A DNA stretch of 64,000 nt from Chthoniobacteraceae bacterium (GCA_037190965.1 JBBCKI010000028.1:32001-96000), one strand, 5' to 3'; positions 27,001-33,000 are shown, counted from the stretch's first letter. Numbers: made by a program.

Positions 27001-30000
27001 CGTGGCGTATGCCGGAGCGAAGGGATTGGAGGTGGTGCCGGTCGTGGCGCTTTTCGGTCACGCAAATCTCTTTCTGCACTGCCCGGAGTTGGAGTCTCTG
27101 GCGGAACTACGAGGCGGAAGACAGGGGCGATTCTCCCGCAGCAAGCATGTCTTCTGCCCGTCGCAGGAGGCAACCTATGAGTTCCTGGAGCGTTACCTCA
27201 TGGAGGTGGCGGCGCTCTTTCCCTCGGAATACTTCCACGCAGGGTTTGATGAAGCGTGGGATATCGGCTATTGCACTCTTTGCGCGGAGCGGTTGGGGAA
27301 GGAGGGGCAGGGCGGAATCTTTCTGAAGCATTTGAAGGACTGCCACGCCATCGTGACCGGTAAGCTCGGAAAGACGATGATGATCTGGGACGATCTCTTC
27401 GATCTCTACCCGGAGACGCTTGCCGATGCGCCGCGCGATATTGTCCTTTGCGGGTGGCACTATGAAAAGCTGGTGGAACTCCCGGGCGGCCACACGGGTG
27501 GCCCGCAGCGCGACGTCTTTGCCGTCTACGAGGCACTCGGCTTTCGCTACCTCTTTGCCCCTTCTGCGGTTTCCATCAGGAACGTGGAAACCCTGACTGC
27601 CTATGCCTGGAAGGGAAATGCCCTGGGAGGATTGCTAACGGTATGGGAACTGGAAAGGCGGTTTCTTTTCTCGGAATTTCCCACGGTGGCCTATGCGGGG
27701 CTGCTTTGGTCGGGAGAGCAGGAGGGGGTGCCGCCGCGTGCGCTCCAGGAGCGCGCCATCCGGGAGGTCACAGGTCTGAAGCAGAGGGAGCATGTGGCGA
27801 TCCTCCGAGCGTTCCTTAATGAGCAGGATCAGGAGTTGCCGCTCTCCCGGCAGATGTACTTGCGTGGCCCTTTGAATGATGAAGATTACGCGCATCAGTC
27901 GCTGGTAGAGATCGCGCTGGAAGCGCTGGAATCCCATCGCGCGATGACTGCGGGAGAACCGGAAGACCTGGCTTGGGAAGTCCTCAATGATACGTGGATC
28001 GACTTATCCATCGAGTCGATCTACTTTGAAATGCGGGAAGTGATCTCCGCGCTGTATCTCCCCAAGACTCCGGCTTCGGAAAAAGAAGCGCTGAAAGAGC
28101 GGGTGAGGGGATGCCTCAATCGATTTACGGCGATTCGCGCCATCCGACGAGAGCAATGGGAGCGGTTTCGCCCCGGGATTCCCTCTCGCGATTGCGACGC
28201 CTACTATGGCGGGGCCATTCAGATGATGACCGGGGTGCTGGAGGCGGCGGACCGGGTGCGTGCCTTGTTGAAGGTGAGGTTCGGCATCGGACAGGCATCG
28301 GTGGATTTTCTCTTCAAGTACCCTGGAAGCGATTTATGGCATCAGGGGGTGCCGACGTTTGGAAAGATGATTCCCACCGAAACCGACTTCTATTTCCCGC
28401 TGGATGGCGATGCGATGGCAGCTATGCCTGGGGCGATTCGGATCGAGGCGTCCGGGTACGTCGGTGTGGGGGTGATCTATCTGGAGATCGAATCGGCATC
28501 GGCTCGCATGGTCCCGAAGTCGATTGGCGCGATTGAAGGGGCGGTGATCCACCCTGAAGCGCTATTGGAGAACGGTCGCGATGCCTGTTTCCTGGGAGAC
28601 GGAGAGCAGGCGGCACGTCAAAAATTCCGAAACCCGGCCCTGGCAAAAGTCAGGCATGCGATTGAGCTGAATCTCGGGATAGTGGCTGCGCGGTAATCAT
28701 CCGCATCGAGTTGGGGAAGAAAGTTCACTTCGCACCGCCCCTTTTTTCGGGCGGTGTGCCCGAGGGGATGGAGATAACCGGCGCGTGCAGAACGGTGCTG
28801 CTTCCGGCGAGATCCGTGGTAGCGGGAGTATTTGAGAGGCGGTAAGCGGCGGGCGTCATCTTCTGCACGGAGCGAAAGACGCGGGTAAAGTGGTAGCGAT
28901 CACAAAAGCCGGTGGCCTCGGCGATCTGCTCGATTGAGGCATCGGAGAACTGGAGCATCAGGCTGGCTTTCTCAATGCGCTTGATGCGGATGTGGACCTG
29001 CAGGGTGTGGCCGATCTGTTCCTTGAAGAGCTGATTCAGGGAGCTGACGTTCATGCGTGCCAGTCGCGCCAGTTCGGCATTCGTCGTGTTGGGCTGGAGA
29101 TGTTCGTCGATATAGGAGAGCACTTTGAGGACTCTCGCATCGAGCTGTGGCGAGCGCCTCATATCGGGGTGTGTCTGCGCAAGCACCATGCCGATGAACG
29201 AGCGGGCCGTGAGCGAGATCTGCCACGTGCAGAGTGTCTGCATCTTCATGAGCTCCACCAGCTTTTCGCCGATTCCGAGCAGAGGCTGCGCCATGGGGAG
29301 GACGGCGATTTCCGAGGCAGTCTGGTGATGAAAGGCCACGCTATGGAAATGAAGGTAGAGGTGATCCATCGTGCCGGTGTTTGTCGTCGTGCAGGCCGCG
29401 TTGGGGCTGACAAGCACGACGGAGGAGGGATCGAGGTCCACCGTCAGATTTCCGCACCGGATGGTCGCCCCGGGGGAGGAGTTCCAGTAAAGCCGCCAGA
29501 AAGGTTCGCAGAGGCGTGAGAAAGTCCATTGCTTCGGGAGTAGCTGCCCGTAGCCGCACAGCAGCAGACGAAGGCAGGGATCCTCCAGCGTCGCAATGGT
29601 GCGGTGGCTCGCGGGGATCTTTCCAGGGCTGGCGCGATAAATGGCGGAAGCAGGCATGGTGTCTCGTAGGAAGGGGTGGGAAGGGCCGTGATGTCAAACC
29701 AGCCACGGATTGTACACAAAAGCCACCTTATCTGCATTTATTTCCCTTTTTCGAAAGCGATAACCTCGCGGCATGCATTCTTCGTTCATTCCCGATACAG
29801 AGTTCCTCCAGCGCATCGAAAAAACGCGACATCTTATGGCGGAGGCCGGCCTTGATCTTCTTCTGGCCTTTTCAACGGAATCCGAGCCGGCTTACGTGCG
29901 GTATTACTCGGACTACTGGCCGAGCTTCGAGACGGCGGGCGTGCTGATCAGCGCTTCGGGCGAGCAGCATCTGCTCATCGGGCCGGAGAGCCGTACTTAT

Positions 30001-33000
30001 GCGGCGGCCCGCTCCAGGATTCCCGGGATCGTGAGGATGGTGGACTTCCGTGAATCCTCCCAGCCTGCCTACCCCGGCAGCAAGCTGGCAGACTGGCAGG
30101 AGGTGCTCTGCAGCTACCGCCCGAAGCGGATCGGCATCGCCGGGTGGCATCTTTTCCCCCATGCAATTCTTCAGAACATCGTGGCCGCCGTTCCGGGTGT
30201 GGAGCTGGTCAATGCCGACGATGTGGTGCGGCAGGTGATGCGGTCGAAATCCCCGGCAGAGCTCAACTGCCTGCGCGAAGCGGCAAGGATCTCCGAGCTT
30301 GGCTTCAAAGCGGTGCTGGAGAACATCCGCGAAGGAATGACGGAAGCGCAGCTCTGCGGAATCGCTACCGCGGCCATGCTGGCCGATGGAGCGGAATCCA
30401 CCGGCTACCCGATCTGGTGCTGTAGCGGTCCGAACTCCACTCAAGCCATCAGCCGCCCGACGCATAGAAAGGTGCAACGCGGCGAGGTCATTCATTTCAG
30501 CATCGGGGCAAAGGTTTCGGGCTACAGCGCCAGTGTAGGGAGGCCCATTGTGCTGGGGCATTGCCCGGAGGATCTTCGCAAGTTTCTGCAAACGGGCTTG
30601 GACGCGATGAAAATGACCATTGACCTCATGCAGGCCGGCCGGGTGTCCGGAGAGGTGGCCCGGAAGGTGCACGGCTGGATTGCCGACCAGGGCTACGGTG
30701 ACACGATCTTGTACGGGCCGGCGCATGGTTGCGGGCAGATGGAGTGTGAATTTCCATTCCTGGAAAGTTCGTCCACCTTCGTCCTTGAGGAGAACATGGC
30801 CTTCATGGTCGACGTCTTCCTCGCCAATGAACGCTCAGGCTTCCGCTGGGAGGACGGTGTGATTGTGCGGAATGGCGCGGCGGAGGAGCTTTCATCCTTC
30901 GGTCGGAACCTGAACATCCTGGAGGTATAAGATGATTATTGATGTTCATGGCCATTTGGGCCGGATCAATCAGGCACCCTTCTGGGCGGCGGATGAGACG
31001 CAACTGGATAGCTATCTTGATGAAGCGAAGGTTGACGCGCTCTGGGTATCCTCGTCGAAGTCGCTGATGTATGAAGCGCGAGAGGGGAACGCGGAGCTGA
31101 TCGCGGCGCTGGAGAACTCCCGGAAGCTGCTCGGCTACGTGGTGCTCAATCCTGTCTGCCCAGACTCCATTGCCGATCTTGCGCTGCTGGAACACGAGAA
31201 GGTGATCGGTGTGAAGATTCACCCTGACTATCACGGCTACGACATGATCTCGCCTTCCGTTCAGCCGTTCCTTGATGAAGTTGCCCGGGCGACGGGGTTG
31301 ATCCTTACCCATGTCTCGTGCATGCCTGGGATGGCTTTTTCCGAAGGGGGCAAGCTGCTAGACTTCGCCGAGCGGCACCCGGAGACCAATTTCATTTTCG
31401 CCCATCTCGGCGGGATGTATCAGAACGGGCACTATCCCTACTTCCCTAACTATGAGGGGCTGGAGAAGATCGCCGCGCGGAATCTGCCGAATGTCTATGT
31501 CGATACGTCGCAGCACTTGATGTATGTCTACCCGGGCGTGATGCAGCGCGTGGTGGAGATTTACGGTGCGGACCGGTTGGTCTTTGGGACGGATATGCCG
31601 CTGCAGGGGCCGATGCAGGCGCGGTTCGCCATCGAAGCCATTCAGGCATTGGCGATTCCGCAGGAGGACAAAGACAAGATCTTCTTCAGGAATGCGCAAA
31701 GGCTATTGGCATCAGGGGGGAAGCGATGAGCGGAGGAGCGCGGGTCTGGTATTTCCCCGACGGTTATCTTCCAGCCAAGAAGGCAGGGAGGTGCTTGAAG
31801 CGCATGAGTCGCTGATGCTGCTGAACGTGGGAGAGGAGGATGCGCACGTGGTGATCGACATTTACTTCTCCGATCGCATGCCGACGAAGGGAATCAAGGT
31901 CGATGTCCCCGCGGAACGGATCATTGCGCTACGGTTGGATCATCCCGCCGATCTTGCGGGTGCGGTGATTCCTGAGCAGACGCAGTATGCATTGAGGATC
32001 ACATCGGATCGAAACGTGGTGGCGCAGTTCGGTCGGCTCGATACCGCTCAGAGTAACCTTGCCTACTATGGTAGCGACGGTTTTCACGAGCCGCTGTAAC
32101 CTGCAATCATTTGTTTGTTAGATTAAGGAGCCGGGGGTTCGCCCTCGGCTCCTTGCCTCATAATGAGGCTGAAGGCGAAGATTAGCGCTCCGGAGAGATT
32201 TCGATCTCGAGAACCGACATCGATTTCCCAGCCATCTTTTTCAGGCGGAAGATGCTTCCGTTGGGAACGACTGTATTCTTCGGAAATTGGCTGAGCGTTA
32301 CGATTCGTTCGCAGGGGACTCCAACATCCACGGTGCAGTTCCGGTAATAAAACGCATTGTTTCGCACGTAGACTCGCAATGTATGGAGCCCTGTTTTGTA
32401 CGCCCAAGCTTGAATGTCCTTCGGGTTTTGCAGGACGCGGACGCCGTTGGCTTCGGAAATGATCCAGTTCGCCGCACTTTGAAGGACGGCATCGGGGATC
32501 TTCCGGCTGGCAAGATCGACCAACCAGAAGAACGAATCCTGTGCGGCAGATGGTTCGAAAGGCTCGGGAGCGGGCCACTCGCCTTCCAGTGAGGAGTTTG
32601 CTTTTTCTGAATAGATCGAAATCTCGAAGGCATCGGCTCCCCCGTAATAAGCGCGGCGCTGGCGGGGTGCCGGATCTGCCGGGGCTGGGCCGCCGACGGT
32701 GATAACGGAGATGTCTTTCCTCGCCATCAAGGCGCTCCACTCCTCCGTAGGTAGAAGGTGCGGATGAACGACAAGCAGGGTGCCCTTCCATGCCGCCAGA
32801 TTTTCAGAACGCACCACTGCCAGCAGGGGGGCTCCCGCAGCGCTTAATTGCCACACGATCCGATCGAGCGGACAGCGACGGGTGGCGACATAATCCTCTA
32901 CCAATCCTTCCCGGTAGGCATCGCTCCAATAAAGGGCGGCTCCCAGGATTCCCTCGGGCTTCAAGGCATAGCCAAGATTCCAACGGTCGGTGATCCATTC

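Follow-up and report, generated by a model that had tools for sequence, protein, structure and literature searches.

The window analysed here is a stretch of 64,000 nucleotides from a Chthoniobacteraceae bacterium (GCA_037190965.1, JBBCKI010000028.1:32001-96000), and it carries a three-gene cassette on its forward strand. The first gene (29773..30930) encodes a 385-aa protein with the Creatinase_N plus Peptidase_M24 fold and a rebuilt active site; we refer to this protein and its clade as rM24. It is followed by a gene for a 265-aa Amidohydro_2 TIM-barrel metallohydrolase (30932..31729), whose cluster conserves HxH, His and Asp motifs and which we propose to be a de-N-acylase, and by a frameshifted ASRT (PF07100) gene (31726..32099), probably a pseudogene of a putative mutarotase. 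An AraC-family regulator on the reverse strand (28725..29657) is divergent from rM24, and its homologs flank rM24 in other loci of the clade.

Sugar-related genes lie upstream on the forward strand. In a Victivallaceae genome (locus L055), a homolog of the GH20-like glycosidase (26783..28696) shares one operon with rM24, an amidohydrolase and ASRT, and the window's Gfo/Idh/MocA oxidoreductase (22466..23746) is 42% identical to its counterpart in that operon. The GH42-like glycosidase between them (24747..26780) belongs to the same cluster, and its position beside rM24 is not conserved elsewhere. Also on the forward strand are u280 (17831..18673), a 280-aa protein to which neither Pfam nor the Atlas assigns a family and that adjoins window-type rM24 in 30 of 80 metagenome loci, and a glycosidase-like protein of uncertain start (15922..17823) whose family occurs in 32 of 102 clustered loci, its longer members matching GH20 domain 2. 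Beyond the cassette, the reverse strand encodes a protein of about 680 aa (32182..34326) that belongs to no Pfam or NCBIfam family and has homologs close to C29-type cassettes, this genome's own C29 locus among them.

The initial annotation described three ASRT genes in this genome, each in an operon with an M24-fold protein and an amide hydrolase of a different fold. The search returned exactly three PF07100 matches, in the window (contig C28), at C1:35125-37810 and at C29:128570-130766, each at most two genes from a PF00557 gene, and the partners are indeed unrelated: Amidohydro_2 in the window, CE4 at C1 and PIG-L at C29. The C29 locus also holds two DegT aminotransferases and three xylose-isomerase-like TIM barrels. 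All three ASRT copies score above the cut-off and contain the His-Glu pocket motif, and the best PDB matches are 1NC7 and 2II7.

The C1 and C29 copies of ASRT are intact, and the window copy is broken. Its ATG at 31726 opens only 29 codons before a TGA at 31813-31815; the frameshift lies near 31785-31790, and the Pfam match begins at model position 17 in the other frame. In a close relative (locus L356) the gene is intact and encodes 124 aa, and the DNA alignment of the two contains a single gap. Contigs (compared here in place of raw reads) from two samples of one study reproduce the frameshifted sequence without gaps; one of them may be the source, and the other covers 31740-31934. Because the contig of the second sample agrees, the frameshift is probably not an assembly slip, and an assembly error is unlikely. 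Apparent ASRT fusions (open frames of 379 and 387 aa) proved to be overlapping amidohydrolase frames. A look-up of RNA records listed no holder for the stretch, which has no bearing on its expression.

Active site of the rM24 clade

The rM24 proteins, named 'Xaa-Pro aminopeptidase' in databases, form a separate clade of 65 representatives that contains no Asp/Asp member and is set off by a gap in score (>416 bits versus ≤261 bits). The best sequence match of the window protein is 2ZSG (E 4e-26), and its structure model has a pLDDT of 97. Plasmids yielded no close relative, the best matches listed reaching at most 27% identity.

Compared with Xaa-Pro dipeptidase and aminopeptidase P (M24B; E. 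coli APP numbering), rM24 retains the equivalents of His354, Arg404 and Glu406, is without those of Asp260, Asp271, His243 and His361, and has gained new, invariant glutamates (Glu53, Glu72 and Glu324). Among the top 62 full-length representatives, the His354 equivalent is His in all 62, the Glu406 equivalent is Glu in 61, the Arg404 equivalent is Arg in 59, and the Glu383 position is Asp in 57. Asp occurs at the D260 and D271 positions in only 2 and 3 of them, and His at the His243 and His361 positions (Ile226 and Cys325 in the window) in none. The key residues of the window protein are E53, E72, H318, E324, E326, D347, R358 and E360. Loss of the prolidase Asp ligands, claimed earlier, is borne out: they are Ser/Ser in the window, where the Glu383 equivalent is Asp, Asn/Ser at C1 and Ala/Thr at C29. 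The description 'metal-free' is not supported: of the four ligands that hold the site-1 metal in aminopeptidase P, rM24 retains three. With these three ligands conserved, metal binding by rM24 remains likely, and we propose that the protein is a mononuclear-metal amino-sugar deaminase.

The fold does not discriminate among known relatives, with Z scores tied between creatinase (1CHM, 41.1; 21% identity), prolidases (40.7) and EutD (40.5). The positions of creatinase His324 and Glu358 hold His and Asp in rM24. However, an alignment bridged by a plasmid creatinase (E 7e-169 to 1CHM) places Ile226, Gly256 and Thr54 of the window protein at the catalytic His232 and Glu262 and the carboxylate-binding Arg64 of creatinase; the Glu406 position, His in creatinase, is Glu in rM24. 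'Creatinase-like' does not hold, since the position shared by creatinase His232 and DoeA His238 is Ile, Val or Leu. At the functional residues His238 and Glu255 of DoeA/EutD, the window protein has Ile226 and Ser243. DoeA retains this His and Glu and no longer has His354 and Glu383, two positions at which rM24 carries His and Asp, and rM24 scores 64 bits on TIGR02993 (EutD/DoeA) against a cut-off of 613. On their residue patterns, we reject placing the rM24 proteins among the prolidases or creatinases, or with DoeA or agropine synthase.

Partner hydrolases and the ASRT position

The core of the cassette is rM24 plus an amide hydrolase, and ASRT is accessory. Of the 80 GTDB loci, 65 have an amide hydrolase from one of six families within 4 kb of rM24; where the sequence extends 4 kb or more to either side (43 loci), 39 do. 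As a control, 82 canonical M24 loci (30 + 52, 1.5 kb flanks) gave one M20 fragment and no ASRT, CE4, amidohydrolase, creatininase, PIG-L or PTE neighbour, using HMMs derived from cassette members, which distant hydrolases may escape. The cassette loci are mutually related and were chosen by similarity to the window protein, so the Fisher p value of 1.5e-4 from the GTDB set overstates the case. Among close relatives of the window, a hydrolase is present in 25 of 26 well-flanked loci (Amidohydro_2 within 4 kb in 23) versus ASRT in 10. The initial annotation, centred on ASRT, thus has the module the wrong way round: ASRT can be dispensed with or replaced, and in the window it is broken.

The partners comprise CE4, creatininase (18 of 80 GTDB loci), Amidohydro_2, PTE, M20 and PIG-L folds and, once, a cyclase/formamidase-like protein. 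CE4 and creatininase have been exchanged several times inside one rM24 clade, which points to one reaction on one substrate. Metal-ligand motifs are intact in the consensus sequences of the CE4, PIG-L, amidohydrolase and creatininase-fold clusters, and the PDB and NCBIfam hold no characterised close relative. From sequence, the partners are putative N-deacylases, and specificity for N-acetyl over formyl or cyclic amide groups is likewise putative. Several Diplocloster operons consist only of a monosaccharide ABC importer, rM24 and usually ASRT, a composition that an upstream and optional deacylation would predict. Elsewhere the neighbours include LacI or AraC regulators, glycosidases and SusC/SusD-like genes, and Bacteroidota cassettes comprise rM24, creatininase, DUF6786 and MFS. 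The exchange of partners among unrelated folds, together with nearby sugar transporters and glycosidases, supports the part of the earlier proposal that saw a conserved module acting on an N-substituted sugar; its 'metal-free creatinase-like hydrolase' is not supported.

The nearest known arrangement is EutD/EutE (DoeA/DoeB), where a two-domain M24 protein without a binuclear site is also encoded next to an N-deacetylase. By this logic the substrate of rM24 would be an amidine or imidate, either a sugar oxazoline or an N-acetimidoyl sugar (FucNAm, for example); hydrolysis would yield ammonia and the N-acetyl sugar, the partner would then deacetylate the latter, and ASRT would still be a mutarotase or sugar-binding helper. 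The tied fold scores and the doeA-doeB pairing of M24 with deacetylase agree with such a scheme, the strongly acidic rM24 site would suit an amidinium ion in an ordinary C-N hydrolysis, the two deacetylases found with rM24 in C29-type cassettes would fit an acetamido-acetamidino sugar, and NagB/SIS genes in three loci would complete the route. We nevertheless consider it unlikely: rM24 has neither the catalytic His nor the first Glu found in creatinase and DoeA, the amine-removal step would stay unfilled in most loci, and an exocyclic amidinase would scarcely need a mutarotase. Amidino sugars occur less commonly than 6-deoxy sugars with an N-acetyl group, which fits poorly with the 3-6 rM24 paralogs found per genome. 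The cassettes further differ from DoeA/DoeB in having six or seven other hydrolase folds as partners, the DoeB family being absent among those identified, and in their sugar-import and glycosidase context. The order of EutD/EutE, with the M24 step preceding the deacetylase, counts against our preferred scheme, in which deacylation comes first.

In the 80 GTDB loci the position of ASRT is filled by ASRT (28), DUF6786 (14) or DUF4432 (4), which never co-occur, and in the tree the replacements sit nested between branches that carry ASRT. The top six Foldseek matches of a DUF6786 model (pLDDT 91) are galactose mutarotase-like or aldose 1-epimerase-like (TM about 0.55-0.57); the DUF4432 fold is presumably mutarotase-like as well, and the GalM fold also occurs in non-catalytic domains. 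By analogy with these substitutes, ASRT is probably a mutarotase. Its His-Glu motif is conserved at ≥90% across 74 sequences. T. maritima, in which the RhaM family PF05336 was not found, encodes TM1070, listed as 'Predicted L-rhamnose mutarotase' and induced 35-fold in the column where rha genes rise (PMC3750489).

The link between the two families is clade-specific, and a universal one is rejected. Like TM1070 and the Anabaena ASRT (ASRAH domain), the rM24-linked ASRTs score above the PF07100 cut-off and carry the His-Glu motif; unlike these, they have no pocket Cys and end in a C-terminal Tyr-Tyr, and they form a clade of 62 of the 74 sequences (support 0.83). No rM24 was found near any of 12 Cys-type ASRTs or 10 ASRT loci in randomly drawn Bacillota genomes (one contig ends at the ASRT gene), and ASRT also occurs in contexts other than sugar isomerases. 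Within the phylum the reported linkage was reproduced, rM24 lying within 1.5 kb at 25 of 29 ASRT loci from other genomes (401 sampled, 31 with ASRT).

A different role for ASRT, that of a sugar sensor and not an enzyme, was proposed in 2009 in the ASRAH paper (PMC2739507). Its main text is free of creatinase, amidohydrolase and deacetylase, as the initial annotation stated, and of 'mutarotase'; 'peptidase', said to be missing too, does appear once, for an unrelated zincin. In one rival reading ASRT is such a ligand-binding regulator, the substrate is no reducing amino sugar but an aminocyclitol, an Amadori compound or a cyclic amide, and the partner is a ring-opening hydrolase. The DegT and xylose-isomerase-like genes at C29 would suit this, the creatininase-family partner weakly matches IolN, and some zinc dehydrogenases score best on IolM, below cut-off. 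Creatininase plus creatinase is an established cyclic-amide route. The correlation between rM24 and ASRT distances (rho 0.69, 47 pairs) is compatible with binding, but co-inheritance alone predicts it. We regard this reading as very unlikely, as a regulator or a cyclitol substrate would hardly explain why a GalM-fold protein takes the place of ASRT, and cassettes already contain LacI or AraC regulators beside glycosidases and SusC/SusD-like genes.

A possible route for N-acyl amino sugars

The substrate of the cassette is very probably an N-acyl amino sugar. Our preferred reading, held tentatively and a little short of an even chance, is cytoplasmic catabolism of N-acyl amino sugars barred from NagA/NagB, through de-N-acylation, mutarotation and deamination by rM24 to a ketose. 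The sugars would be N-acylated amino monosaccharides freed from bacterial glycans, most likely those that cannot be 6-phosphorylated, with 6-deoxy-HexNAc (FucNAc, QuiNAc, RhaNAc) or HexNAc-uronates as candidates; without 6-phosphorylation, NagK/NagA/NagB would be closed to them. The net chemistry, deacetylation and then deamination to a ketose, would be that of NagA/NagB, but most cassettes have no kinase, the folds are unrelated and a mutarotase position is present. NagA and NagB are encoded separately in this genome, which disfavours GlcNAc as the substrate.

In the first step, which fold and strong context suggest, the amide hydrolase would take the N-acyl group off the free sugar. ASRT or its GalM-fold substitute, as accessory, would then interconvert the anomers and supply the open chain, a role suggested by the repeated gene replacement. 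In the third and least certain step, the 2-amino-aldose in its open-chain form would sit in rM24 the way an alpha-amino acyl group sits in an aminopeptidase, one metal on H318/D347/E360 would polarise C1, and the conserved carboxylates would promote an aldose-ketose rearrangement. Ammonia would leave, and the resulting ketose, such as fuculose or rhamnulose, would enter existing pathways. FucP and RhaT occur above cut-off inside cassettes, and among 80 window-type loci 7 have RhaT-like and 3 have FucP-like genes. For the few cassette kinases, models of xylulokinase and fructokinase give the best scores, which stay below cut-off.

That rM24 itself removes the amine is a possibility we take seriously without quite expecting it. 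To our knowledge, the characterised M24 enzymes other than DddP are hydrolases. DddP is a case of non-hydrolytic chemistry evolved on this fold (PMC4108388). Among 80 GTDB loci only 6 have a known amine-removing family (NagB 2, SIS 1, DegT 2, serine-dehydratase-like 1), and among 80 metagenome loci only 1, a hole in the pathway that rM24 could fill; the search used few exemplars, which distant families would escape, and u280 and the 680- and 780-aa neighbours could hide a deaminase. Where an over-cut-off NagB lies directly upstream of rM24 (two related loci, L077 and L110), where SIS and PfkB are paired (L064), or at the C29 locus of this genome with its two DegT aminotransferases, the amine could leave via known routes.

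The same neighbourhoods can be read in terms of an alpha-amino ester or amide hydrolase. rM24 would then either hydrolyse the 2-amino-aldonolactone that an oxidative route forms by deacylation and a C1 dehydrogenase, or act as an amidase taking aminoacyl or uronamide groups off amino sugars. This chemistry is nearest to that of an aminopeptidase, with one metal; the lost leaving-group His residues would suit a small or internal leaving group, and Gfo, SDR or zinc dehydrogenases stand beside many cassettes, those of the window and C1 included, with a serine-dehydratase-like PLP enzyme in one locus. The agropine synthase of Ti plasmids, whose substrate is a lactone, is an M24-fold protein, but unlike rM24 it follows the creatinase-type pattern, in which the His is retained and the His354 position is lost. 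Moreover, Bacteroidota cassettes mostly have no adjacent dehydrogenase or ammonia-lyase, and the usual anchor of the alpha-amine is gone with the D260 equivalent, making a hydrolase of this type quite improbable.

We return to rM24 as an amine-removing enzyme. In its full form, the preferred reading makes rM24 a phosphate-independent amino-sugar deaminase on an aminopeptidase fold, the missing step for 6-deoxy and uronic N-acyl amino sugars, and ASRT a new structural class of mutarotase; taken together, these claims are doubtful.

Many N-acyl amino sugars of bacterial glycans lie beyond NagA/NagB. Our literature search, with subscription journals mostly outside it, returned no catabolic route for them and no publication on the rM24 cassette. 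The cassette offers candidate enzymes from at least eight phyla, at present labelled 'Xaa-Pro aminopeptidase'. If the reading is true, bacteria of soil, sediment, digesters and the gut would recycle the capsule and O-antigen amino sugars of other bacteria via rM24, and the Anabaena 'rhodopsin transducer' would be recast as a co-opted sugar enzyme. The exchange between ASRT and GalM-fold proteins makes the role of ASRT in rhodopsin-free bacteria experimentally approachable.

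The window cassette and its M24 protein

On the + strand of the window, three genes are arranged head to tail: one for a 385-aa protein with the Creatinase_N and Peptidase_M24 Pfam domains (29773–30930; M24*, an M24-fold protein with a rebuilt active site), one for a 265-aa protein with the Amidohydro_2 Pfam domain (30932–31729), and a gene of the ASRT or 'rhodopsin transducer' family (PF07100; 31726–32099) whose frame is broken. Genome-wide searches gave three matches to ASRT and five to M24. The three weaker M24 matches are the M24* proteins, each within two genes of one ASRT; of the remaining two, one is a canonical prolidase-like protein and the other is shorter, of MetAP size. 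The pairing of ASRT with M24 at three loci, proposed in the initial annotation, is thus borne out, and the hydrolase partners are those it had named: an amidohydrolase in the window, a CE4 protein on contig C1 and a PIG-L protein on contig C29. The C29 cassette also encodes a 543-aa protein resembling two fused amidohydrolase barrels (C29:125491–127122; L002:9495–11123), lying between genes for DegT and an esterase.

In a Victivallaceae genome, M24*, amidohydrolase and ASRT genes form an operon with homologs of the window's GH20-like, Gfo, u280 (a 280-aa protein outside the Pfam families) and 630-aa genes. Because these homologs share one operon, 15.9–32.1 kb of the window is probably a single functional cluster. 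Pilin-like genes with N-terminal methylation motifs lie inside sugar loci of the window (18532–19398, +; ~47520–48250, −), and similar genes occur near Lentisphaeria M24* cassettes. The window also encodes a 585-aa PEP-CTERM protein of repetitive beta-type sequence (34372–36129, −) and, on the opposite strand about 10 kb from the cassette, an AstE/AspA-family deacylase of DoeB-like fold (41434–42816, −); AstE had no match among the clustered neighbours of M24*.

A profile search over 1.84 billion representatives listed 150 matches, and the 107 of at least 340 aa were aligned. Among the best 62 of these 107, the active-site residues (window numbering) were H318 in 62, E360 in 61, E72 in 60, E324 and R358 in 59 each, E326 in 58, and E53 and D347 in 57 each. 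In the same 62 sequences, Asp occupied the two prolidase Asp columns in just 2 and 3 cases, and His was never found at the columns of His243 or His361 (E. coli aminopeptidase P numbering). The window protein falls in a clade of 65 sequences (FastTree support 0.89), none of them an Asp/Asp member, and in genome searches M24* scored above 416 bits compared with at most 261 bits for canonical M24 proteins. The M24* model (pLDDT 97) matched creatinase, prolidases and EutD alike at Z 40–41; owing to this tie the fold cannot assign the protein, but its residues can. In the aligned columns, creatinase His232, Glu262 and Arg64 are Ile, Gly and Thr, so that the earlier label 'creatinase-like' gives way to a separate subfamily. 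DoeA and agropine synthase keep the creatinase-type His and have lost His354, whereas M24* shows the opposite. Active-site residues rule out membership of the creatinase or EutD family; the cassette resembles a hydrolase-deacetylase module in its working, yet lies outside both families. The description 'metal-free' is not supported either: three of the four ligands of aminopeptidase metal site 1 are retained, and for this reason one bound metal is more likely than none.

Other M24 variants (P0213–P0273; L379:5989–7161) keep Asp/Asp and have lost His243, His361 or Glu383, one of them on a Priestia plasmid, divergent from a LacI gene and a sugar ABC operon. Additional non-peptidase M24 families are likely to exist.

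The core pair of M24* and an amide hydrolase

The core of the cassette is M24* with an amide hydrolase. A GTDB scan confirmed at least 409 M24* relatives, of which the best 80 were retained for neighbourhood counts. An amide hydrolase lay within 4 kb of M24* in 65 of these 80 loci, and in 39 of the 43 with full 4-kb flanks. The partners were CE4 (37), creatininase family (18), Amidohydro_2 (7), PTE (3), M20 (3) and PIG-L (2) proteins, some loci having two; CE4 and creatininase alternate inside one M24* clade. One further locus places M24* with a cyclase/arylformamidase-like gene within a sugar ABC operon, and Lentisphaeria-type relatives of the C29 paralog combine PIG-L, CE4 and a fucose-isomerase-like gene. 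The window clade was also sampled at 80 metagenome loci; the 26 with 3-kb flanks contained a hydrolase in 25 cases and ASRT in 10. The control set, 30 + 52 loci of canonical M24 genes taken with flanks of 1.5 kb, yielded a single M20 fragment and no other partner, a count from which distant hydrolases could escape since the HMMs were made from cassette members; at the same flank size, 61 of the best 80 M24* loci had a hydrolase.

URO-D-like genes repeatedly adjoin M24* in Chloroflexota and Bacillota (L062, L064, L083, L085, L088, L092, L098), once accompanied by a B12-binding protein, hinting at methylated sugars. The cultured Diplocloster modestus (L141–L146, L286) encodes five ASRT paralogs and no fewer than six of M24*, most of which share an operon with their own monosaccharide ABC importer. 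Intact cassettes are present in this species, in the cultured Mariniphaga sediminis and at this genome's C1 and C29 loci.

ASRT and its replacements

From its ATG at 31726, the window ASRT runs for 29 codons until a stop at 31813–31815; its N-terminal and C-terminal portions align to the C29 paralog in two different frames. In L356, a metagenome relative whose M24* is 97% identical, ASRT is intact at 124 aa, with one gap in its DNA alignment to the window copy. The window's letters recur without gaps in contigs from two samples of the same study: one contig is possibly the assembly's own source, and the second covers 31740–31934. In a 96%-identical relative (L297:7920–8331), ASRT has one-base gaps of its own and only an internal-Met ORF, which could reflect decay that arose independently or an error of assembly.

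Within 4 kb of M24*, ASRT was found in 28, DUF6786 in 14 and DUF4432 in 4 of the best 80 loci, and ASRT never occurred together with either DUF (0/80; Fisher p 1.5e-4, a significance exaggerated by kinship). Branches with a replacement are nested at several places among ASRT-bearing ones. The predicted model of DUF6786 has a galactose-mutarotase fold, and DUF4432 presumably has a mutarotase-like one. ASRT thus occupies a putative mutarotase slot beside M24*. Thermotoga maritima, the control in a RhaM search, had no match to the RhaM family. Its ASRT, TM1070, appears in a supplementary table (PMC3750489) as rhaM, 'Predicted L-rhamnose mutarotase', an entry for which no experimental evidence is given. 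The mutarotase idea therefore has a precedent in table annotation; what is new here is displacement by other families.

The M24*-linked ASRTs form a clade lacking the pocket Cys, with M24* within 5 kb in 55 of 62, compared with 0 of 12 Cys-type sequences, in a sampling that favoured M24* loci. Against a general link, M24* was near ASRT in 0 of 10 loci from random Bacillota genomes, and Sinorhizobium ASRTs adjoin pyruvate oxidase and trehalose-synthase-like genes. On an S. meliloti plasmid (L204:4965–7110), one operon holds two ASRT genes, the second without a match to the His-Glu motif, together with pyruvate oxidase, an FAD protein and maltose alpha-D-glucosyltransferase.

Proposed chemistry

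According to the model, the amide hydrolase would de-N-acylate an amino sugar, whose amine must then be removed. Genes for amine removal are rare: in the best 80 GTDB loci, exemplar searches detected NagB and DegT in 2 loci each, and SIS and a serine-dehydratase-like enzyme in 1 each; among the 80 metagenome loci, a single one had DegT. The genome encodes its own NagA and NagB, as well as RhaEW and rhamnulokinase-like and RhaA-like genes; RhaM had no match in this genome (97% complete). Among cassette transporters, FucP and RhaT exceeded the cut-off and a NagP-like protein fell below it, while the rare kinases scored highest on ketose-kinase models. A mutarotase would serve an enzyme working at C1/C2, and an open-chain 2-amino-aldose would, we infer, resemble the alpha-amino acyl group bound by aminopeptidases. 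M24* would then deaminate the amino sugar without phosphate, giving a ketose. The rarity of amine-removing genes, the transporters and ketose-type kinases, the use of a mutarotase at C1/C2 and the aldose–aminoacyl likeness lead us to favour, tentatively, a phosphate-independent deaminase.

Several observations count against a deaminase. In two related loci a canonical NagB gene immediately precedes M24*, SIS and PfkB occur in another locus, and the C29 locus has two DegT genes. Moreover, the M24 family is habitually hydrolytic. Of the rival readings, M24* as an amidine hydrolase is rather unlikely, and as a lactone or aminoacyl-amide hydrolase a little more so. A non-sugar substrate or a regulatory role appears improbable. 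Returning to the cassette as a whole, literature searches found neither it nor 6-deoxy-HexNAc catabolism described, and it is real and widespread, probably catabolic and apparently undescribed, with a rebuilt M24 active site. If the deaminase and mutarotase assignments are true, which is doubtful, it would represent new enzyme chemistry together with a new mutarotase class.
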